In this document: positions 42,201 through 61,797 of the stretch, piece after piece
How the letters are laid out: every line of letters starts with the position of its first letter
How positions within the stretch are numbered: the stretch's first letter is position 1
Assembly (NCBI GenBank): GCA_038231455.1
Contig: JBBRLI010000001.1
Span: forward strand, 192,001-256,000
Length of the DNA stretch: 64,000 nt
Direction of reading: 5' to 3'
DNA from: Vulcanimicrobiales bacterium
GTDB taxonomy: Bacteria; Vulcanimicrobiota; Vulcanimicrobiia; Vulcanimicrobiales; Vulcanimicrobiaceae
Translations under genes and position numbers: made by a program
The notes under the pieces: generated by a model
Seen by the model: the letters and a program-made list of their open reading frames with translations, nothing else
What the model was told of the DNA's origin: nothing
The model's database searches: none

Positions 42201-42252
42201 GCCAAGAGTCTAGCACATGTCGAGGGCACCTTGGAAGATGGCGTCTCTAATC

Positions 42253-42266
42253 TGCTATAATGTAGC
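42253..42266 (+). promoter_or_regulatory. Extended -10 promoter with overlapping palindrome
   Basis: TG-C-TATAAT 6 nt before the ATG; GCTA-TAATG-TAGC inverted repeat. Confidence 0.65.
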
Positions 42267-42267
42267 T

Positions 42268-42558
42268 ATGAAACAGGTTCGAATTTCCGATGCAAAAGCG
42301 CGACTCTCGGAAATTGTACGCGAAGCTGTAGCTGGCGTGTCGACCATCTTAACCCGAAATGGCGAACCGGTCGCGAAGATCGTTCCGATGCCGCTCGCGA
42401 GAATTCGCGAATTTGGTTTTGACGATGGGCTTGGGCGAATTGCCGATGACTTCGATGACCCTCTCCCAGCCGATATCCTCGCAAAGTACTTCAACATAAA
42501 AATGAGCCGCGCTGATTGGCGCGACTCACTTTCTCGTCTTGGGATGTTGTCGCTCTAG
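42268..42558 (+). CDS. Phd/YefM family antitoxin (no toxin gene follows)
   Basis: MKQVRISDAKARLSEIV..A..G....LTRNGEPVAKIVP...DDFDDPLP. Confidence 0.88.
   Translation: MKQVRISDAKARLSEIVREAVAGVSTILTRNGEPVAKIVPMPLARIREFGFDDGLGRIADDFDDPLPADILAKYFNIKMSRADWRDSLSRLGMLSL
42498..42534. terminator. Probable bidirectional terminator between convergent genes
   Basis: AAAAA-TGAGCCGCGC-TGATTG-GCGCGACTCA-CTTTCT. Confidence 0.55.
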
Positions 42559-48411: not shown

Positions 48412-48428
48412 TGTCTACCCCGTAGACA
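48412..48428. promoter_or_regulatory. Palindromic site TGTCTAC-N3-GTAGACA (copy 1)
   Basis: Perfect 7-bp inverted repeat, 33 nt upstream of the 48462 ATG; recurs at 53687. Confidence 0.7.
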
Positions 48429-48461: not shown

Positions 48462-50132
48462 ATGATATTGCGACGTCTCGCGCCGCTCTTTCTCGTGGTT
48501 GCCGCGCTTTTTGCGCGTCCTGCCGACGCGCATCCGCTCGGCAACTTCACAATCAATCATCTCGTGCGCGTGACGGCAAATGCGAAGTCGTTGGATCTGC
48601 GTTACGTGGCTGACTTCGCCGAGATTCCGTCATACACGATCCTCCGCCAGATGGCGACATCAGCGAAACCGACGAAGACGCAGCTCGATTCGTGGGCGCG
48701 GACCGAAGCAGCGACGATTGCAAACGACTTGCATGCAAGCGCCGACGGAAAGACCCTCGCGCTTGCGCCGCGCACGGCTCAGGCGAGGACGAAGCCCGGC
48801 GCCGGTGGCCTTCTGACGATTCGACTGGTCGCCTCGTATGCCGGCGATGCTCCCGGTTCGATCGCGCATGTGGTCGTTCACGATGCAACGTACGCCAATC
48901 GTCTGGGCTGGAAAGACATGGTTCTTGCGCCGGCGACCGAGCCGACACAAGAACTTACCGTCTATCCGAACGCTCTGGTGGGGTCGCCACGCCAAACCAC
49001 GATGCTTGCCTTTACGATCGATGCGCGCGGCGTTGCGATTCGAACCGATGCGCCCCGCGCCGTCGAAGGGCAGACCGTAGCGTCGCCGGGTCTCGCGCGC
49101 AGCAATGCACTCTCCGATATGCTCGCCCATGGCGACGGTAGTTTGACGTTCTTTATCGGTGCGTTGCTTTTAGCGATCGGGCTCGGCGCACTGCACGCAC
49201 TCGAACCCGGCCACGGGAAAACGCTGCTTGCGGTTTCGCTGGTCGGCGCGCGTGCGACGATGCAACAAGCAGCAATTCTTGCCGGGGCCTTGACCGTGGC
49301 GCATACGGCGGGCGTACTCGCGCTCGGTGTTGTCGTCCTGTACGCCGCACGCTGGATTGTTCCCGAGCAGATTTACCCGTGGATAACCTTAGGATCGGGC
49401 GCCGTCGTTGCGTATCTCGGCGCGCAAGCCCTCGCACGATACGTTCGTGCTCGCCGTCCGGTCGCTCACGCACACGTCCACGATCATCGCGATGCACAGC
49501 CGCATGCTCACGAACACGCGCACGGGCTCGCGCTCGGCGATCACGACCACCAGCATGGCGAAGAAACGGACGCGGCGTTTGCGGCACGAATGTTCGCCCG
49601 GCATCGTCACGAGCACGACGCAAATCTTCCGCACGCGCACGACGCGGCGCCCCACTCGCACGAGGGCCTCGACGATGAAGCGCACGCGCTTGCGCACCGC
49701 ATACCGGGAACGGCACCGCTGAAATTCCGCACCGCCGTCTTCGCGGCGATGAGCGGCGGAATCGCTCCCTGCCCGGCAGCGCTCGTCGTCTTGCTCGCAG
49801 CAATCCAACTCAAAGAGATCGGCCTGGGTTTGATTCTCATCGTCGCATTCAGCTTCGGACTCGCTGCCGTCCTCACGGGCCTTGGCATCGCCGTCGTTCG
49901 CAGTGCATCGTGGCTTGGCAAGCAGAAACGCTTCGAACTTTTCACGCGCTACGCGCCGCTCGTGTCGGCGTGCGTCATCGCGTTCATTGGATCGGCGCTC
50001 GTCGCGCAGGGTCTCGTCGATCAAGGCGTGCCGCTCCCGCTCATGGCGATCGCCGCGCTCACCCTGCTTGCCATTGCCGGTTACGCCTTCGCCCCGCGCC
50101 ACGCCCACCGCACAAAGTCGGTGGCGGCATGA
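48462..50132 (+). CDS. Ni/Co transporter (RcnA/HoxN-like) fused to an exported N-terminal domain, with a His-rich loop
   Basis: Signal peptide then HPLGNFTINH; GALHALEPGHGK, AHTAGV, long His-rich loop, GIAPCPAALVV. Confidence 0.88.
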   Translation: MILRRLAPLFLVVAALFARPADAHPLGNFTINHLVRVTANAKSLDLRYVADFAEIPSYTILRQMATSAKPTKTQLDSWARTEAATIANDLHASADGKTLALAPRTAQARTKPGAGGLLTIRLVASYAGDAPGSIAHVVVHDATYANRLGWKDMVLAPATEPTQELTVYPNALVGSPRQTTMLAFTIDARGVAIRTDAPRAVEGQTVASPGLARSNALSDMLAHGDGSLTFFIGALLLAIGLGALHALEPGHGKTLLAVSLVGARATMQQAAILAGALTVAHTAGVLALGVVVLYAARWIVPEQIYPWITLGSGAVVAYLGAQALARYVRARRPVAHAHVHDHRDAQPHAHEHAHGLALGDHDHQHGEETDAAFAARMFARHRHEHDANLPHAHDAAPHSHEGLDDEAHALAHRIPGTAPLKFRTAVFAAMSGGIAPCPAALVVLLAAIQLKEIGLGLILIVAFSFGLAAVLTGLGIAVVRSASWLGKQKRFELFTRYAPLVSACVIAFIGSALVAQGLVDQGVPLPLMAIAALTLLAIAGYAFAPRHAHRTKSVAA

Positions 50133-50941
50133 TGCTCGTCGGCGGCGCGTTCACCGTCTTCGTGCTCGGACTACGGCACGGCGCCGATCCCGATCATCTC
50201 GCGGCAATCGACAATGTTACGCGCAATTCGTACGAGCGCTCACCACGTCTTAGCCGCTTCGTCGGCACGCTTTTCGCCGGGGGCCATACCGTTATGGTGA
50301 TGGCAATCTCCGTTCTCGTCGGCTTACTTGGGACGCGTTTTGCCGAGCACGGTGCGATTATCGAACGAGTTGGCACGTATCTCTCCATCGCCGTCCTCGT
50401 CGCGCTGGCCGCGGCCAACATTCGCTCGCTACGACGCGGCGGCACGGGCCTCGTCAGTCTGAAGTCCCGCCTCTTGCCAAAGCAGCTGCGCGAGGGTTCG
50501 AGCGCGCTGCTCGCGATTCCAATCGGACTGCTCTTCGGATTCGGCTTCGAGACCTCAAGCCAAATCGCGACGTACGCCGTTGCCTTCGCGAGCACGTCGG
50601 GCGTGTTCGGCGCGGTGATCGTCGGTGCGATGTTTTGTCTTGGCATGATCGTTACCGACACGCTGGATAGCGTGCTCGTGCACCGGCTCGTTTCCTACCG
50701 GCGGGAAACACTCCCGCGCGTGATGCGGACCTGGATCTGGTCTGTCACGCTCGTCGCGCTCACGGTCGCGGCATATGAATTCGCGCAAGTCCTGGGTTGG
50801 CGGTCGCCGCTCTCGGATATGGCGTTTAGTGCGATGCTCGTCATCGCACTGGTTACGGTTTTCGTCTACGTGTTCGTCAAGACACGCAGCGTCACCGAAT
50901 CCGTCACCATGGCACCCCCCACAGGAGAGGTCATTCCATGA
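50129..50941 (+). CDS. NiCoT family (HoxN/HupN/NixA-like) transporter
   Basis: GLRHGADPDHLAAID, FAGGHT, LFGFGFETSSQ; ATGA overlap with the upstream stop. Confidence 0.9.
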   Translation: MMLVGGAFTVFVLGLRHGADPDHLAAIDNVTRNSYERSPRLSRFVGTLFAGGHTVMVMAISVLVGLLGTRFAEHGAIIERVGTYLSIAVLVALAAANIRSLRRGGTGLVSLKSRLLPKQLREGSSALLAIPIGLLFGFGFETSSQIATYAVAFASTSGVFGAVIVGAMFCLGMIVTDTLDSVLVHRLVSYRRETLPRVMRTWIWSVTLVALTVAAYEFAQVLGWRSPLSDMAFSAMLVIALVTVFVYVFVKTRSVTESVTMAPPTGEVIP

Positions 50942-51711
50942 AATTCCAACGCCTGCTCGGATCGGCCGCGGCTATCGCCGTCGTCGCTTCCGCAGCACTC
51001 ATCTACAACGTGTTCCCGGCTCACGGCTCGGATCACCAAGATGCCCCAACGCTCATCGCGCATCCGGCGGCAGACATCACCGATGTCTTTGTCTTCCCGA
51101 GCCCCGCGAACGCAGCGAACGTCGTCCTTGCGATGGACACGCATCCGCTCATCCCCAAAGGAATGGGCGCGCAGACTTATTTTGACCCGCAGGTCATGTA
51201 TCAATTTAAGATCTCGCACGCCGCATCGGGCGTCGAAGATCAGGTCATCCAGTTCAAAGTGAACGGTTCGGATCAAAACCAGACGATCACCGTTTACGGT
51301 CCGGGCGCACCAAATGCAAGCGGCGTCAATTCGACGTTCTTGCCGACCGCGGCCGGTACCGTGACGTACAACCAAAGCGCAACGCTTCCCAATGGCATCC
51401 AAGTCTTTGCGGGACCGCGCTCAGACCCGTTCTACTTCGACCTCTTCCAGTTTTTCAAAATCATCCCGGATCGCAATCAGGCAAACCAGCCGAACCCGCC
51501 CGCTGCGACGGCAGGATCGTTTAACGGATTCACCACCGCCTTCAATCAGGCGAACAGCTCGAGCTGCTCGACCGCTCAAGCCGTCGACGCACTCTCATCG
51601 AACAACTTCAATGTGCTTTCGCTCGTTGTCGAAGTTCCGAAAGCCCTGCTCACAACGTCGTCACCCGTGATTCACGTGTACGCGACGACCAGCACGCAGT
51701 CCGGTACGTAG
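50938..51711 (+). CDS. DUF4331-like exported protein (N-terminal half)
   Basis: Signal peptide, SDHQDAP...ADITDVFVF, VFAGPRSDPFYFD, FNVLSLVVEVP. Confidence 0.8.
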   Translation: MKFQRLLGSAAAIAVVASAALIYNVFPAHGSDHQDAPTLIAHPAADITDVFVFPSPANAANVVLAMDTHPLIPKGMGAQTYFDPQVMYQFKISHAASGVEDQVIQFKVNGSDQNQTITVYGPGAPNASGVNSTFLPTAAGTVTYNQSATLPNGIQVFAGPRSDPFYFDLFQFFKIIPDRNQANQPNPPAATAGSFNGFTTAFNQANSSSCSTAQAVDALSSNNFNVLSLVVEVPKALLTTSSPVIHVYATTSTQSGT

Positions 51712-51723
51712 GAGAACACCAAC

Positions 51724-52353
51724 ATGCAAGACTTCATCAAGTCCTTCGCCGGAACGATCGCAGCAGTCGCCGGTATCGCCGGCCTGGCAAGTTGCGGCGG
51801 CGGCAGCTCCACCTCACTCCCGCCAGCGCCGAACCAATACGTTCAGATCGAGCGCCTCGCGCGCCCGGCCGTTAAAGAACTGTTCCAAAACTATCAGGCT
51901 CATGATTCTACCAACCGCGCGACTCCGTACAGCGATCCCACGCTCCCGGCCGCGATCAACAGCTTCATGACCGGCGTTGCCGGCCGCTCGCCCGCAATCG
52001 CAAACGCCGTGCAAGGCGTGCTCATCCCCGATGAAATCGCAGCAGATCTCTCGCAAAGCGCGACCTCGGCGGCGTACCTCGGTGTCGAAACCGGCGGCGC
52101 GACGGGTAATAAGTTCGGCGGACGCGATCTGCTCTCGCCCGTCATCGACATCTCGCTCGGCGTCGTGTTCGGCAAAACCGTTCCCGCGCTCTTCTCGACC
52201 ATCCCAGATGACAAAAAAGAAAGCCCCTGCCTAACGACGCAAAACGTGCCTTTGACGGTGCCCGGTGGCAACGCCCAATACACGTCGGCCGCACAAATCG
52301 GTGCGGCGAATAACGAGACGGCAACGTTCCCGTATCTCGGGACGCCGCACTAA
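51724..52353 (+). CDS. DUF4331-like lipoprotein (C-terminal half)
   Basis: Lipobox LASC; QIERLARPAVKE, GGRDL...VIDISL, C-terminal FPYLGTPH. Confidence 0.78.
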   Translation: MQDFIKSFAGTIAAVAGIAGLASCGGGSSTSLPPAPNQYVQIERLARPAVKELFQNYQAHDSTNRATPYSDPTLPAAINSFMTGVAGRSPAIANAVQGVLIPDEIAADLSQSATSAAYLGVETGGATGNKFGGRDLLSPVIDISLGVVFGKTVPALFSTIPDDKKESPCLTTQNVPLTVPGGNAQYTSAAQIGAANNETATFPYLGTPH

Positions 52354-52358
52354 CTCTC

Positions 52359-53684
52359 GTGCGACCTCAGACCCTGTGGGCAGTGGCAGCGAGCGCGGTA
52401 ATCGCGCTCGCTGCCTGGCCCGCCTTCGTCAAAGTCAGTGCGGCCCACGCGATGGCACCCGCATCGACGGCGACGCCGGCGCCGCCCAATCGCGACGATC
52501 TGCGCCGCGATGCCATCGTCTCCGCACTCGAAGCGCAACTGAAAAAGAATGGGCCGAATTTCCTTGTGCCCCGTCTTCTTTCCGCGCAATACTTGCAGCG
52601 ATACCGCGAGCGCGGCGACATCGACGATGTTCTACGCGCGCAGCACGTCGCCCAACTTTCTCTCACCGCGCAAACGCGCGGTAACATCGCAGGCGATCTC
52701 TCGATGGCAAGCGCCCTGCTGACGCTTCACCGATTTAAAGAAGCTCGCGGCTATGTCGATACGGCGGTTCGATCCGCCCCAAGCGAAGACGCTTTCGTTG
52801 CGGAGGAAGCCTCGCTCGACCTCGAGACCGGTGCGTACGAACGCGCCAAACGCGAACTCGCGCGCATTTCGCCGCGCGGCGCGAGTTCCGAACCCGTCAA
52901 AACGATTCAGTCGCGATACGACGAGCTAACCGGCAGCCTCGATGAGGCGCGACGTTTGCTCGCAAGCGTGACGACAACGATGGATACGTACTACGATCTC
53001 TCCGCCGAACGACGTGCCTGGTTCCACATGCGCTTAGGTGAAATGGCCTTCACGGCCGGTGATGTCGATGAAGCGGTCAAAGACGAACGCGACGCACTTG
53101 CCATTTTTCCAAACGACAGTCGGGCATTCAATGCGCTTGCACGGATCGAACTTGCTCGTCACCACGATAAAGACGCGCTCGACGCCGCGACGCGCGGTGC
53201 GGCGATCCTCCCGCTGCCGGAGACACTCGGCTACCAATCGGACGCCCAACGCGCACTTGGCGATGCGGCATCCGCCGACCGTGCGCGCGATGAGATCGAA
53301 GCAATCGAGAAAATCGGCAACGCGCAGCGCGTGAACGACCGGCTCCTAGCCATCTATTATGACGAACACGATCTGAAACTCGATGATGCCTATGCGATCG
53401 CCAAGCGCGAAATCGCGGTCCGTGACGACGTTTTCGCGGAAGACACCCTTGCCTGGGCGGCGGCGAAAATCGGCAAGTGGGACGAAGCCTTGGGATTGAT
53501 TCGCAAGGCGCGCCGATACGGGACCCAAGATTCGCGAATGTTGTATCATGCCGGCGTGATCGAAGAGCACTTCGGGAATTCTAGCGCCGCGAAGTCTGCA
53601 TTCACACGCGCCATCGCCCTCAACGCGTCGTTTCATCCGACGTACGCCGACGACGCGCGCAAGCGCTTACAGACGCTCCTTTAA
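52359..53684 (+). CDS. Exported or anchored TPR protein
   Basis: N-terminal hydrophobic segment, multiple TPRs, R.DVFAEDTLAWA, LYHAGVI. Confidence 0.85.
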   Translation: MRPQTLWAVAASAVIALAAWPAFVKVSAAHAMAPASTATPAPPNRDDLRRDAIVSALEAQLKKNGPNFLVPRLLSAQYLQRYRERGDIDDVLRAQHVAQLSLTAQTRGNIAGDLSMASALLTLHRFKEARGYVDTAVRSAPSEDAFVAEEASLDLETGAYERAKRELARISPRGASSEPVKTIQSRYDELTGSLDEARRLLASVTTTMDTYYDLSAERRAWFHMRLGEMAFTAGDVDEAVKDERDALAIFPNDSRAFNALARIELARHHDKDALDAATRGAAILPLPETLGYQSDAQRALGDAASADRARDEIEAIEKIGNAQRVNDRLLAIYYDEHDLKLDDAYAIAKREIAVRDDVFAEDTLAWAAAKIGKWDEALGLIRKARRYGTQDSRMLYHAGVIEEHFGNSSAAKSAFTRAIALNASFHPTYADDARKRLQTLL

Positions 53685-53686
53685 AA

Positions 53687-53702
53687 TGTCTACAACGTAG
53701 AC
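53687..53702. promoter_or_regulatory. Palindromic site TGTCTAC-N3-GTAGAC (copy 2)
   Basis: Same arms as 48412-48428; lies upstream of the TonB-dependent receptor. Confidence 0.7.
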
Positions 53703-53773
53703 GATCCAGCTCGATTCGGACCGCGTTTTGCGTGGTAGGGTGGTCACACCGCACCGGGCCGAAGGATAGAATC

Positions 53774-56257
53774 TTGCGTTGTTTTCGAGTTGTGCTGCCA
53801 GTGACCGCATTCGTGATCTTGCTGTCCTCCTGCTTACCGGCGCGCGCGCAAAGTCGTCCCGGTGCCGAAACGGCTCCCAGCGCGCGAATGACTGCGACGG
53901 GTTCCATTTACGGGGTCGTCTCCGGACCCGATGGCTTCGAGCTTTTCGGCGCAACGGTCACGCTATCCGGGACCCCGACGCGAATTACGACGACCGACGC
54001 TAGTGGTGCCTTTCGTTTCGACGACGTTGAGGCAGGTCCGCACCGCTTTCGTGTAACCCTCTCCGGGTACGGCGATGCACGTGAAGACGCAATTGCGATC
54101 GACGATCGCGCGGTAACCGTTCGTCTCTACCCGGCAATCGTCGGAGAGTCCCCGAAAAACGACTGCAAGTCGGGAGTCGTGCGAGCGAAATCGTCGCCAT
54201 GTTCGTCGCCGGATCTGAAGACAATCGGACGTGTGCAGGCCCGCGGTCGTGCGGAAAATCTCATCGGCACGGCGACTTCCGCGGCCGAAGGGTTTGTGGG
54301 ACACGCCGAACTAGAGAAGCGACCGATCCTGCGTCCAGGCGAACTGCTAGAAACCGTTCCCGGTGTGGTCATCTCGCAACACTCCGGCGAAGGCAAAGCG
54401 AACCAGTACTATTTACGAGGATTCAATCTCGATCACGGCACCGACATCGCGGTTACGGTCGGTGGTGTCCCAGCGAATATGCGCACCCATGCGCACGGTC
54501 AAGGCTATTCCGACATCAACTGGCTGATCCCTGAGACGGTCAACTATGTGAATTATCGCAAGGGTACCTATAACGCAGACCAGGGCGACTTCTCAACTGC
54601 TGGGGCCGTCAACATGGCGTATTTTAATACGTTACCGCAGAGTATTCTCACCGTGGTGGGCGGACCGTACGGACAAGCGCGCTTCCTGCTCGCTGAGTCT
54701 CCCGCGGTTGCTAAGGACATGCATCTGCTTTACGCCCTCGAATACGCTCACGAAGACAATACGGCACTCGACAAGGACAACTATCGCAAGTACAACGCGC
54801 TCGTGCGCCTGAGCCGTCAGTCCGGAAATTCGTTCTTCGATATAACCGCGCAGGCGTACGATGCAACCTGGAATTCTTCCGACCAAATTCCGTTACGAGC
54901 GGTCCAGCGAGGTGACATAAGCCGCTTTGGACAGATCGACCCAACCGACGGTGGCCGAACGCACCGCTATGTACTATCGACGGACTACGCGCACAGCGAC
55001 GAACGTTCGTCGACACAATTTGTCGCGTACGCGCTCGACTATCGTCTGCGCCTTTTCTCCGACTTCACGTATTTCCTTAGCGATCCGGCCAATAAGGATC
55101 AATTCGAACAGACGGACCAGCGGCTCGTACTCGGAGTCAACGCAAGTCATACGCTACACACCCGTTCCGCCGGCGATTACACCGTCGGCTATCAAATGCG
55201 CAACGACAACATCACCCCGGTATCGCTCTATGCGACTGCCGCGCAGCGTATTCTCAGTACGACGCGTATCGATCGCGTGCTCGAGACAAGCAATGCGCTC
55301 TACGTACAAGCCGACCGTCATTTCTCGAGCAAACTTCGCTTCACCGCTGGACTTCGCGGAGATCTTTACGCGTTCAAAGTCAAGGATTTGCGCCCCGAAA
55401 ATTCGGGCACGACGACGGCCGGAATTATCAGTCCCAAAGCCGCTCTCGCTTATACGGTGAGCCCGAAAACGGAATTTTACGCGGATTTTGGCACCGGGTT
55501 TCATAGTAACGACGCACGCGGAGTTACCGAGCACGTCGATCCGGGAACGGGCCTGAGGACCGACCCGGGCACCGGTCAAATCGTTCAGGGCGCAACCCCG
55601 CTTGTTCGCGCGGTCGGATCGGAGGTCGGCGCGCGCTTTCTGTTCGGGAACGGACTCCGGACGACCGTCTCCCTTTGGAATCTCTTGCTCGGATCCGAAC
55701 TCGTTTTTCAGGGCGATGCCGGAACCACCTCACCAGGACGCCCTAGTCATCGGTACGGCATCGAATTTGCAAACTTCTGGACGCTGAACAAGAATACAAC
55801 ACTCGATGTTGACTATTCGACATCGACTGCTAAGTTCACCGACTACGATCCGGTTGGCCAACATATTCCCGGGTCGGTCAAAGACGTGCTGACCTTTGGA
55901 ATCACGAAAGATGCGTACAAAGCCTTTGGCAGTCTGCGGCTGCGATACTTCGGGCCCCGTCCGCTCATCGAAGACGCAAGCGTCTCGTCAAATCCAACGA
56001 CCACCGTTAGCCTGCAAGCCGGCATCAAGCCCGCAAAAGGGATTAAACTGCAGCTGGACATCTTCAACTTGCTCAACGCCAAAACAAGCGACATCGATTA
56101 CTATTATAATTCCTCGATCCCAAGTGACCCCGCGTACACAAAGCCCGGCTACGCCGGAGCTTGCCCGATCGATCAATGCGGTGTCGGCGTGCCCGACGTG
56201 CACTTCCATCCGATCGAGCGACGCTTACTGCGCTTTACGCTCAGCAAGCAATTTTGA
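53774..56257 (+). CDS. TonB-dependent receptor with N-terminal carboxypeptidase-regulatory-like domain
   Basis: Plug RPGELLETVPG..ISQHSGEGKANQYYLRGFNLDHGTD, THAHGQGY, FHSNDAR, C-terminal Phe. TTG 53774 follows GAAGGA (start uncertain). Confidence 0.92.
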   Translation: MRCFRVVLPVTAFVILLSSCLPARAQSRPGAETAPSARMTATGSIYGVVSGPDGFELFGATVTLSGTPTRITTTDASGAFRFDDVEAGPHRFRVTLSGYGDAREDAIAIDDRAVTVRLYPAIVGESPKNDCKSGVVRAKSSPCSSPDLKTIGRVQARGRAENLIGTATSAAEGFVGHAELEKRPILRPGELLETVPGVVISQHSGEGKANQYYLRGFNLDHGTDIAVTVGGVPANMRTHAHGQGYSDINWLIPETVNYVNYRKGTYNADQGDFSTAGAVNMAYFNTLPQSILTVVGGPYGQARFLLAESPAVAKDMHLLYALEYAHEDNTALDKDNYRKYNALVRLSRQSGNSFFDITAQAYDATWNSSDQIPLRAVQRGDISRFGQIDPTDGGRTHRYVLSTDYAHSDERSSTQFVAYALDYRLRLFSDFTYFLSDPANKDQFEQTDQRLVLGVNASHTLHTRSAGDYTVGYQMRNDNITPVSLYATAAQRILSTTRIDRVLETSNALYVQADRHFSSKLRFTAGLRGDLYAFKVKDLRPENSGTTTAGIISPKAALAYTVSPKTEFYADFGTGFHSNDARGVTEHVDPGTGLRTDPGTGQIVQGATPLVRAVGSEVGARFLFGNGLRTTVSLWNLLLGSELVFQGDAGTTSPGRPSHRYGIEFANFWTLNKNTTLDVDYSTSTAKFTDYDPVGQHIPGSVKDVLTFGITKDAYKAFGSLRLRYFGPRPLIEDASVSSNPTTTVSLQAGIKPAKGIKLQLDIFNLLNAKTSDIDYYYNSSIPSDPAYTKPGYAGACPIDQCGVGVPDVHFHPIERRLLRFTLSKQF

Positions 56258-58701: not shown

Positions 58702-61008
58702 ATGAAACACGTTAAGAATGTAGCAAAAGATCCCGTTTGCGGAATGGACGTCGATCCGGCCGACTCGGATCAATCGACCGAGTACAACGGAACGACCTAC
58801 CACTTTTGTTCGGCGGGCTGCCGCTCCAAATTCATCGCTCATCCCGCGCAGTTTCTCGAACCGCCGGTCGCGACGCCCGTCGTCGAGGGTGCGATCTACA
58901 CGTGTCCGATGCATCCGCAGATTCGGCAAGTTGGACCCGGCAGCTGTCCGATTTGCGGAATGGCGCTCGAACCGGTGACGGTCTCCGCCGTCGAGCTCCC
59001 AAACGAGGAGCTCCAAGATATGACCCGCCGTTTTTGGATCGGCGCAGCACTCGCACTACCCGTTTTTCTCTTAGAGATGGCGAGCCATATTCCGGCCGTC
59101 CACCTCGAGACACTCGTGTCGGAACGCGCATCGGTTTGGATTCAGTTCGTTCTCTCAACACCCGTTGTGCTCTGGGCGGGATGGCCGTTTTTTGTTCGCG
59201 GCTGGGCGTCGGTTCGTACGCGAAATCTCAACATGTTCACGCTCATTGCGCTTGGAACCGGCACGGCATATCTCTACAGCCTTGTCGCAACATTCGCACC
59301 GGGGCTCTTTCCCGCGGGTTTCCGGATGATGGGCGGCGTCGTGCCCGTGTACTACGAGGCGGCGGCCGTGATCACGGTCCTCGTGCTCCTCGGGCAGGTT
59401 CTGGAGTTGCGCGCACGCGAGCAAACCGGCGGTGCGATTCGCGCGCTGCTCAACCTCGCGCCGAAGAATGCGCGACGAGTTCGTGCGGACGGCACCGATG
59501 AAGACGTCGCCGTTGACATCGTCATTCGCGGCGATCGGCTACGCGTGCGACCGGGCGAAGCCGTCCCCGTCGACGGCGTCGTTCTCGAAGGCCGCAGTGC
59601 CGTCGATGAATCGATGGTCACCGGCGAATCACTTCCGAATTCCAAAGCACCCAGCGACAAGCTGATCGGCGGGACGATTAATGGAACGGGGTCGCTATTG
59701 ATGCGCGCAGACGCGGTCGGTTCCGACACCATGCTCGCCCGAATCGTCGCAATGGTAGCGGAGGCGCAGCGGAGTCGCGCGCCGATTCAAAAACTCGCCG
59801 ACACCGTCGCCGGTTATTTCGTCCCCATCGTCTTGGCGGTCGCACTCGTCGCTTTTGCCGCGTGGGCAATTTGGGGGCCGGCCCCCTCGCTTGCGTACGC
59901 ACTGATCGCGGCAGTTTCCGTCGTGATCATTGCGTGCCCGTGCGCGCTCGGACTCGCAACGCCGATGTCGATCGGCGTCGGCGTCGGCAAAGGCGCGAGC
60001 GCCGGCGTTCTGATCAAATCCGCCGAAGCGCTCGAGCGTTTGGAAAAAGTCGACACGTTGGTGATCGACAAGACGGGCACGCTTACCGAAGGCAAGCCAC
60101 GCGTGACGTCCGTGATTACGGCCCCCGGTCAGACCGAAACCGCAATCGTCGCACTTGCAGCGAGTCTCGAACGATCGAGCGAACATCCCCTTGCCGCAGC
60201 GATCGTTGCAGCGGCGGCAGAGCGCTCGATCGCGCTAAGCGAACCGGCGAATTTCGAATCGATCACCGGCCAAGGTGTTGTCGGTACGATCGACGCGCAC
60301 GCGGTAGCGCTCGGCAATGCGGCGCTCATGAGCGAGCGCGGCGTAGCGCTCGGCGAGATCGAATTGCAAGCCGATGCGCTCCGGCGGAGCGGCGCTACCG
60401 CGCTCTATATCAGCATCGACGGCACGATTGCCGGAGCGATCGCAATCGCCGACCCGATCAAGTCGACAACCGCATCAGCCCTTGCCGACCTCCGCGCGCA
60501 CAATATCCGCATCGTTATGCTCACGGGCGATAACCGCCTCACCGCCGAGTTCGTCGCTAAACACCTTGGCATCGACGAATTCCACGCCGACGTGCTACCC
60601 GAGGACAAAGGGCGGATCGTCAACGAACTGCGCGCGAGCGGTAAGGTCGTCGCGATGGCAGGCGACGGCATCAACGACGCACCCGCACTCGCAGCTGCCG
60701 ACGTTGGCATCGCAATGGGGACGGGGACCGAAGTTGCGATCCAGAGTGCCGGCATGACGCTCGTCAAAGGCGATCTTGCCGGCATCGCGCGCGCCCGCAA
60801 ACTGAGCCGCGCGACCATGCGCAATATTCGAGAGAATCTGGCCTTTGCGTTTCTCTATAACGTGCTGGGCATCCCGATCGCGGCAGGCGTTCTCTACCCC
60901 GTGTTCGGGCTTCTTCTGAGCCCGGTCATCGCAGCACTTGCAATGTCGTTCAGTTCCGTTTCTGTCATCACCAACGCACTACGACTGCGCGGTCTGCGCC
61001 TCTCGTAG
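58702..61008 (+). CDS. copA: Cu(I)/Ag(I)-translocating P1B-type ATPase with YHS and heavy-metal-binding N-terminus
   Basis: KDPVCGM..HFCS..C, YTCPMHP..CPICGM, TGES, CPC, DKTGT, SEHP, YN, MSFSS. Confidence 0.95.
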
Positions 61009-61014
61009 TGCGAA

Positions 61015-61797
61015 TCAGCAATGGTGAGACATCAAATAGGCGGCGTTCCCCAGAAAAATAAAGTGGCTTGAAATGAGAGCGACGAGCACCACACCGGCGA
61101 CGACCGCCGGCCAAAGGCTCATGCTCGAACGTCGTCCGACAAGCGCCCGCAATCTCCACGTAAGGAGCGGCGAGCGTTCGCGTACCGCCGCGCGGACGAG
61201 CAGTGCACGATAACGCTCGACGGCAGCACCCGCGGTCTCACGATCGGCAATCTCTTCGCGTCGCGCATGTCGCCAGCGCTCGAGCGATCGGAAGCCGGGC
61301 AACATCAGAAAGCGCGTGACGATACGCCAGGCAAAGGCCTTGTCCGAATGGCGGCGTGCGATGTGCACGAGTTCGTGGCGCAGTGTGAGTGCGAGTTCCT
61401 CATCATCGAGCGGGTCCATGAAGCCGCGCGAAATGAGAATCTTCGTTCTGCCGTTCGCCGTGAAGCAAAACGATTGCGTAACATCGAGATACGCAGACGA
61501 AGGAACGGCGCATCCGAGCGCGGCCGATTCGCGAGCGAGCAGCAGGCGCAAGCGATCGGGGGGCGGCGTGGCAAAACCCGCCAGTTGATCGAGCCGCTCG
61601 CGCGCGCGAGCGTCGGCCACCACGACGAGTGCCGCGGACACGAGCCCGTAGGCAAGTAAGATTTGCGGCATATACTCGTGCGTAAAGAGCAGCGAGTGGT
61701 ACACCGGATCGATCCCCGAGAGCCAGCAGTACCGGCCGGCAAAATCACCGAGCGGAATAAAGAAAATCAGCGGCCAGACGTACCGGATAAAGCGCAA
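61015..61797 (-). CDS. BlaR1/M56-M48-like membrane zinc metalloprotease
   Basis: ILISRGF, LRHELVH, REEIAD; TM helices; directly follows the BlaI-like gene. Confidence 0.8.
   Translation of the reverse strand: MRFIRYVWPLIFFIPLGDFAGRYCWLSGIDPVYHSLLFTHEYMPQILLAYGLVSAALVVVADARARERLDQLAGFATPPPDRLRLLLARESAALGCAVPSSAYLDVTQSFCFTANGRTKILISRGFMDPLDDEELALTLRHELVHIARRHSDKAFAWRIVTRFLMLPGFRSLERWRHARREEIADRETAGAAVERYRALLVRAAVRERSPLLTWRLRALVGRRSSMSLWPAVVAGVVLVALISSHFIFLGNAAYLMSHHC

Follow-up and report, generated by a model that had tools for sequence, protein, structure and literature searches.

Within the 64,000-nucleotide stretch of a Vulcanimicrobiales genome analysed here, called the window from here on, the forward-strand gene at 50938..51711 encodes the N-terminal half (N-half) of a protein of the DUF4331 family, a 257-residue open reading frame (ORF) that starts with MKFQRLLGSAAAIAVVASAALIYNVFPAHG and continues with SDHQDAP. 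We found that a signal-peptidase-type cleavage site placed directly before [S/A]-D-H is a feature of the DUF4331 family by its sequences, and we infer that the exported chain would begin with Ser1-Asp2-His3 after a cut by signal peptidase I. Our favoured reading is that this processed end forms an N-terminal metal site on a periplasmic protein that assists Ni/Co/Cu transport, either of the type in which an amino terminus binds Cu(II) and Ni(II) (ATCUN) or a composite of amine, His and carboxylate, and we give it about an even chance. The narrower claim that His3 together with the processed N-terminus binds a transition metal seems to us, on the sequence evidence, just as finely balanced, while a strict ATCUN geometry with four nitrogen ligands (4N) is doubtful.

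The leader and its boundary with Ser-Asp-His

The leader of the DUF4331 N-half occupies 50938..51027 (residues 1-30) and is recognised as a Sec-type leader both by its sequence and by the statistics of the (-3,-1) rule. Its n-region contains K2 and R5, residues 6-23 form an uncharged run of about 18, and the c-region NVFPAHG closes with P-A-H-G (residues 27-30, codons 51016-51027), which places the small residues A28 and G30 at positions -3 and -1 of A28-H29-G30|S31. There is no Cys, lipobox or twin-arginine motif in it, and by these sequence features it is a predicted substrate of Sec and signal peptidase I. The predicted mature N-terminus S-D-H-Q-D-A-P lies at 51028..51048, as supported by the codons, the start of the Pfam profile and conservation, and the mature chain spans 51028..51711, ending with the TAG at 51709-51711 and covering approximately positions 1-250 of the PF14224 profile. 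With a cut at G30|S31, His33 of the precursor becomes mature His3, and Asp rather than Pro stands at residue 2, which is the sequence pattern of an ATCUN site, conditional on the predicted cleavage.

The sequence-only reading of this gene had seen a leader ending in PAHG followed by SDHQDAP, had called the protein DUF4331-like, and had proposed a cut A-H-G|S that exposes Ser1-Asp2-His3. Translation and the codons at 51016-51048 agree with the first point; the second holds for the N-half of the domain, given that the family hidden Markov model (HMM) of Pfam DUF4331 (PF14224) scores 113.1 bits against a cut-off of 27; and the predicted cut is supported by the n/h/c anatomy of a Sec leader with A-x-G at -3/-1. 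The HMM match comprises profile positions 1-94 plus further stretches, about the first 250 of 421, and profile position 1 falls exactly on Ser31, that is, on the Ser of SDH. The mature N-half has a single Cys. Among NCBIfam models there is none for the DUF4331 N-half, and its sequence found no match in the PDB.

The boundary was then examined across the family, with 386 proteins aligned to an HMM whose first position is Ser31; 369 of them were usable after leaving out 4 without an HMM match, 10 without the N-terminus of the domain and 3 with a leader shorter than 12 residues. This set is dominated by close relatives, and the count was repeated on representatives of 50%-identity clusters, 136 of 150 being usable. 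The strict (-3,-1) rule is satisfied at the boundary in 341 of the 369 proteins and 117 of the 136 representatives, whereas the best of the other offsets from -10 to +8, which lies inside the Ala-rich h-region, reaches 155 and 48, respectively, the fit at offsets other than the boundary ranging from 2 to 155 of 369. Taken separately, position -1 is A, G or S in 356 and position -3 is A, V, L, S, T, G or I in 357 of the 369 proteins. Directly after the boundary comes SDH in 313 proteins (82 representatives) or ADH in 30 proteins (30 representatives); His3 is found in 346/369 and 114/136, Asp2 in 358/369 and 126/136, and Asp or Glu at position 5 in 353/369 and 122/136. Pro at residue 2 occurs in only 1/136 representatives (DPI in P0157, a row without the motif). 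Many representatives of the more distant clusters have short, classical leaders with A-x-A before [SA]DH.

The same arrangement was seen in 80 named genome loci, found with a 13-row alignment and holding 88 N-half copies from Eremiobacterota/Vulcanimicrobiota, Nostocales and other Cyanobacteria, Armatimonadota, one Planctomycetota metagenome-assembled genome (MAG) and one Limnocylindrales MAG: SDH adjoins the leader in 86 of the 88 copies, with allowed residues at -1 and -3 in 84 of those 86. By the proteins, the representatives and the loci, His at mature position 3 is a feature of the family at large. The consensus given by the sequence-only reading, S-[DS]-H-x-[DE]-A-P, is roughly right, including the Pro at position 7 (274/369), but position 2 is Asp in 358/369 and never Ser, and position 6 is mostly not Ala (S 229, T 89, A 41 of 369). 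Three lipoprotein-type members (P0156, P0165 and P0183), in which the domain cannot begin at a free amine, are without the SDH motif, and this loss of the motif favours, at the level of sequence, a role for the free end.

A DUF4331 domain divided between two chains

In the window the DUF4331 domain is complete only across two genes, given that the next gene, at 51724..52353 on the forward strand, encodes the C-terminal half (C-half), a lipoprotein of 209 residues that matches PF14224 profile positions 250-421 with 55 bits against the cut-off of 27 and whose lipobox L21-A22-S23-C24 is encoded at nucleotides 51784-51795. Both ORFs are in the same frame, with one TAG and 12 nucleotides between them, and the AGGAG Shine-Dalgarno sequence of the C-half overlaps the TAG that ends the N-half. 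We take the two halves to be genuinely separate genes, because the C-half has its own Shine-Dalgarno sequence and lipoprotein leader, because there are short homologues, more than 100 N-half homologues of 250-300 residues that end at about 260-290, and because in related loci split C-halves occur in all three frames (frames 0/1/2: 19/16/14, n = 49) after mixed stop codons (TAG in 28, TAA in 19 and TGA in 2 of the 49 split N-halves). Read-through of the TAG was considered and rejected on these same grounds, the start codon of the C-half included. The N/C pairs of the 80 loci comprise 49 that are split and 37 that are not, and 48 of the 88 C-half matches are ORFs of their own, whose leaders are mostly of the lipoprotein type with Cys, a few being too short to judge. 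The C-halves of Eremiobacterota and Armatimonadota have their own lipoprotein-type leaders, and the cyanobacterial copies are unsplit.

Taking advantage of an unsplit DUF4331 paralogue of 451 residues on contig 9 of the same genome (L004:1408-2763), with a leader ending in ...S-S-R-A|S-D-H-Q-D-S-P, we modelled the mature protein with alignment-based AlphaFold2, which gave a mean predicted local distance difference test (pLDDT) of 91.9 and a predicted template modelling score (pTM) of 0.92; this model was used instead of a single-sequence one, whose mean pLDDT was 31.4. In the model the paralogue is predicted as one unit with a beta-rich N-half and a helix-rich C-half. Its first 10 mature residues have a mean pLDDT of 80 against 96-97 in the next blocks, with residues 1-6 as coil, and this lower-confidence coil tip in the model favours a free-end role. 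A Foldseek comparison of the model with the PDB had a best E of 0.015, with no clear relative, and the ESM Atlas gave no usable match. The wide VIA-align search gave a best Z of 7.0 (root-mean-square deviation 5.6, 209 residues aligned; Sas6, 7uwu_A), a value within the range that the tool describes as common, by which the fold is not shown to be new, followed by Ig-like matches at Z of about 5. As a side observation, the gene of this paralogue lies directly after a flagellar hook-type gene, and no transporter was seen beside it within the 3.3 kb examined.

The two mature halves encoded in the window, predicted together as two chains, scored 0.92 against 0.00 for the best of 3 controls, above a mark reached by 116 of the 157 complexes with a solved structure and by 2 of the 215 mismatched pairs, rates that are rough here, own alignments having been used. 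The runs share at least 84% of the contacts, with a partner pLDDT of at least 82, and the prediction thus supports binding between N-half and C-half without proving it. Given that no related solved structure was found, this score reflects the unsplit family fold and not a remembered complex. The modelled interface comprises Ser31, Asp32, Asp35-Leu39, residue 42 and residues 45-54 of the N-half, and residues 60-61, 64-70 and 131-138 of the C-half, including the invariant His60 and Gly-Gly-Arg132-134. His33 and Gln34 are missing from this predicted list, which the tool treats as uncertain and not as negative. In addition, each mature chain in the window holds one of a pair of Cys, full-length DUF4331 members have exactly two Cys in 65 of 79 cases, one per half, and over 80 rows the Cys is present in both halves in 51, in neither in 17 and in one in 12. 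A disulfide across the two halves is likely, because the Cys of the two halves co-occur in the sequences.

The metal site, its transporter neighbours and competing explanations

To judge from the gene arrangement, the DUF4331 N-half gene is translationally coupled to two permeases of the NicO family, with ATGA start/stop overlaps at 50129-50132 between the two permease genes and at 50938-50941 between the second permease gene and the N-half gene. The first, NicO556, is an RcnA/NicO-like permease of 556 residues (48462..50132, forward strand) with a Pfam NicO match, a loop rich in His and, at the N-terminus, an extracytoplasmic domain, and the second is a NiCoT-like member (50129..50941, forward strand) with 69.4 bits against 27.7 for PF03824. 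The latter contains H-G-A-D-P-D-H, an instance of H-x4-D-H, which we take to be the NiCoT or HoxN-NixA signature, and its score for NCBIfam TIGR00802, 71.7, is below the cut-off of 333.05. Its gene probably starts at the ATG at 50129, because the relatives align only from query residues ~70-80 on, the longest ORF, from 49910, being probably about 73 codons too long. In some database entries, P0121, P0125 (541 residues) and P0034 (400 residues), the DUF4331 N-half follows on from the C-terminal end of the NiCoT-like permease in a single protein, and these joins are probably gene-call run-ons across the ATGA overlap and not real fusions.

These genes form a tight operon in the order NicO556, NiCoT-like permease, N-half, C-half after 12 nucleotides and, 5 nucleotides further, an exported protein with matches to TPR families (52359..53684, forward strand), followed after 47 nucleotides by a TonB-dependent receptor (53732..56257, forward strand) with CarboxypepD_reg, Plug and barrel domains. 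The linkage of DUF4331 to NicO permeases and the TPR protein is conserved, by the sequences of the 80 loci: near the N-half there is a C-half in 79, a homologue of the TPR protein in 70, a NicO556-like gene (within about 7 kb) in 60 and the smaller, NiCoT-like permease in 42, while this TonB receptor is found in 3. Of the 19 loci that gave no NicO match, several are short contigs. The link to Ni transporters that the sequence-only reading had named is upheld, both by the ATGA-coupled permeases in the window and by the loci. Besides this, NicO556 itself has a predicted mature end with His1, A-D-A|H-P-L-G-N-F-T-I-N-H (His codon 48531-48533), and the boundary A-x-A|HPLGNFT[IV]NH is present in all 50 NicO556 homologue N-termini listed (loci L005-L084). 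Its N-terminal domain of about 200 residues is without a Pfam match, and its sequence had no significant match among PDB chains (best E 0.1).

Put together, the mechanism that we favour would run as follows. The DUF4331 N-half, a soluble chain, would be exported by Sec and cut by signal peptidase I after A-H-G30; according to the models it would assemble in the periplasm with the lipoprotein C-half of the next gene, one disulfide probably fixing the two halves, as the models and the co-occurrence of Cys suggest; and His3 with the free alpha-amine would make an N-terminal metal site, either a true 4N ATCUN chelate that takes Cu(II)/Ni(II) or else a composite with Asp2/Asp5 and residues of the C-half. 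This two-piece protein would serve the co-transcribed NicO-family Ni/Co permeases, of which NicO556 would itself mature to an N-terminal His1 domain, as a periplasmic accessory for capture, buffering or hand-off, and it would have the same role toward the co-regulated TonB receptor. The metal may be Ni, Co or Cu, and the role uptake or efflux buffering. At its widest the proposal makes DUF4331 a new periplasmic metal-capture class, in which a processed-N-terminus site (amine, His3 and Asp2/Asp5), completed by a separately exported lipoprotein chain, relays Ni(II)/Cu(II)/Co(II) to a His1-domain NicO permease, that is, a three-part relay of processed N-termini that is kept from Eremiobacterota to Cyanobacteria and works alongside a TPR protein, to which this genome adds a co-regulated TonB receptor; we hold this wider version tentatively, as possible rather than probable.

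Two groups of known proteins come close to this proposal. In the ATCUN site (NH2-Xaa-Xaa-His), the terminal amine, two amide nitrogens and a His nitrogen bind Cu(II)/Ni(II) in a square planar arrangement at physiological pH, the metal receives no ligand from the side chains of residues 1 and 2, and serum albumin and the secreted peptides hepcidin and neuromedin C are examples (PMC7701195). The DUF4331 tip is similar in having its His third in a predicted processed extracellular N-terminus with a residue other than Pro at position 2, and a Cu(II)/Ni(II) preference would suit its Ni/Co-type transporter neighbours; unlike those examples, it is the end of a large, folded protein of the bacterial periplasm, and the model shows it docked on a second chain. 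Metalloproteins with an N-terminal His1 have been found by signal strapping, namely the Ni-binding DUF4198 and the anglerases Ang-1 and Ang-2, which are fused to HupE/UreJ-2 permeases, and Ni or Cu binding is there shown experimentally (Franco Cairo et al. 2025, PMC12537917). As in DUF4198 and the anglerases, cleavage of a signal peptide would create the metal-binding N-terminus of DUF4331, where it is predicted, and there is linkage to a Ni permease and a TonB receptor, but the His of DUF4331 is at position 3 and not at 1, and because of this a signal-strapping search would miss it. The terms ATCUN and NicO are absent from the main text of PMC12537917. NicO556 shares with the anglerases a predicted His1 domain fused to a permease, and differs from the anglerase fusions in that its permease is NicO/RcnA-like instead of HupE/UreJ-2 and its N-terminal domain is without a significant PDB match; it would work in the way of an anglerase fusion without being classed among them.

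Another parallel comes from E. coli, where RcnB is the periplasmic partner of the Ni/Co exporter RcnA. DUF4331 resembles it as a proposed periplasmic accessory encoded beside an RcnA/NicO-family membrane protein, whereas RcnB belongs to an unrelated family.

Several observations weigh against a metal site at the tip, or against parts of it. There is no His3 in 22 of the 136 representatives, whose starts include TDLQDS, FDIQDS, FDVKDS and ADLQDS, and Asp2 (358/369) and Asp/Glu5 (353/369) equal or surpass His3 (346/369) in conservation and survive its loss, which argues, from conservation, that the acidic residues have another role. In the model of the complex, the SDH tip looks docked at the junction of the two chains rather than free, and a planar N-terminal chelate would require this docked segment to rearrange. 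The uncharged run of the family leaders is long (median 20, about 18 here), and in P0246 and P0247 (2/136) ADH lies some 10-12 residues past a better-looking cleavage site. Finally, the affinity of ATCUN sites for Cu(II)/Ni(II) is very high, a property more fitting for sequestration than for hand-off, and NicO proteins of the RcnA type can be exporters, as the NCBIfam name says, so that transport here may run in either direction.

The His-less members deserve a closer look, since they speak to both sides. These paralogues, at L055:8072-8848 and L083:7001-7774 and in P0127, P0148, P0150, P0160, P0169 and others, have starts such as FDLQDSP, FDIQDS and TDLQDS and keep Asp2, Asp5 and the conserved core; the locus L055 holds a His-less copy (FDLQDSP) plus a His-bearing one. 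When 10 His-less members were compared with 73 His-bearing ones, they differed only at residues 1 and 3 and at mature positions 67 and 135, while Asp2, Asp5, Asp16, Asp19, Glu70, Asp133 and Asp138 were kept. That the core is kept without it argues that His3 can be separated from the fold and has a function of its own, as a ligand would. On the other hand, besides His3, residues 1, 2, 5 and 7 of the mature tip are also conserved, and ATCUN alone fails to explain the whole motif, because the side chains of residues 1-2 are non-coordinating and yet Asp2 and Asp5 are conserved. For this reason the original suggestion that an ATCUN site accounts for the start of the motif is only partly supported, with the two Asp positions at least as conserved as the His and retained where it is lost.

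The main rival to the metal site is a structural or internal-pocket role, in which the N-terminal segment is mainly a latch onto the C-half, through salt bridges of Asp2/Asp5 or a Ca2+-type carboxylate site with Asp16/Asp19, and His3 sits in an internal ligand or catalytic pocket without participation of a free amine. Asp2, Asp5, Asp16 and Asp19 (mature numbering), near-invariant and kept when His3 is lost, count for it, and so do the modelled contacts of Ser31, Asp32, Asp35-Leu39 and residues 45-54 with C-half residues 60-61, 64-70 and 131-138. It nevertheless leaves unexplained why, in about 90% of members, the first residue of the domain falls exactly at the signal-peptidase site, why lipoprotein-type members lose the motif and why His is fixed at position 3, and we regard it as rather unlikely, though a serious competitor. 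Less probable again, and in our opinion improbable, is that the exposed N-terminal peptide is not a metal site but a recognition element for the TPR protein, for the ectodomain of a permease or for the TonB-dependent receptor; short peptide ends are common ligands of TPR domains, and the TPR gene stands beside DUF4331 in 70/80 loci, while the Asp, His and Asp of the motif are typical metal ligands and the neighbours are metal permeases with a His1 tip of their own.

A further rival is a leader that is kept as a membrane anchor, or cut elsewhere than at G30|S31, which would leave no Xaa-Xaa-His amine terminus. The long uncharged run already mentioned and an A-S-A|A site within the h-region that also fits the rule, offset -10 fitting in 155/369 proteins, are in its favour. 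However, the fit to the rule peaks sharply at the boundary (341/369 vs 2-155 elsewhere), conservation and the Pfam profile both begin at Ser31, representatives of distant clusters have short classical leaders with A-x-A before [SA]DH, and the outer-membrane TonB receptor of the same cluster, whose leader is necessarily cleaved, has an equally long one. The translations of this receptor and of the TPR protein both show such a long h-region, which by sequence seems more a trait of this organism than the sign of an anchor. A retained or differently cut leader is thus, in our estimate, very improbable, the least probable of the rivals to the N-terminal metal site.

Candidate regulatory sites, distribution and flanking genes

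A perfect palindrome, GTCTAC-N3-GTAGAC, lies at 48413..48427, 35 nucleotides upstream of the first permease gene, and a second copy at 53688..53702, 30 nucleotides upstream of the gene for the TonB-dependent receptor. No other exact copy of (T)GTCTAC-N3-GTAGAC occurs in the 64-kb window or in the 3.7-Mb assembly. The palindrome ties the TonB receptor to the operon as a candidate operator, on sequence grounds. A copy with one mismatch on contig 12 was dropped, being inside a long ORF. In the 80 related loci there was no exact match, and matches with at most 2 mismatches were only scattered, and no regulator gene was identified near the palindromes. Rfam found one tRNA only in the 64-kb window, with no riboswitch near the operon.

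The family itself is widespread, with 1678 representatives of 50%-identity clusters at E <= 0.001, and 26 of the 81 genomes sampled from this phylum have it, as against 0 of 14 model-organism control genomes. No paper mentioning 'DUF4331' or 'PF14224' was found in the literature searched, probably because the family is absent from model organisms. Combining ATCUN with periplasmic, nickel and signal-peptide returned only work on PcoB, which deals with internal His-rich ATCUN-like motifs, and among the matches listed for the broader ATCUN literature, judged by their titles and the openings of their abstracts, there was no bacterial family of this kind. If the tip binds Ni or Cu, a bacterial Xaa-Xaa-His site generated by signal-peptide cleavage would join the N-terminal-His metalloproteins, and, if the proposal is true, the conserved DUF4331-TPR-NicO module of soil bacteria and cyanobacteria, in which Ni feeds urease, hydrogenase and Ni superoxide dismutase, would acquire a function.

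Some 2.4 kb downstream of the TonB receptor, a gene at 58702-61008 on the forward strand encodes a P-type ATPase for heavy metals whose YHS and HMBD domains are those typically seen in Cu pumps. This nearby Cu-type ATPase may hint at copper rather than nickel. Beside it, on the reverse strand (61015-61797), is a gene for an M48/M56 (BlaR1-like) peptidase. Upstream of the operon there is also a gene for a Phd/YefM-type antitoxin (42217-42558, forward strand), unrelated to DUF4331.

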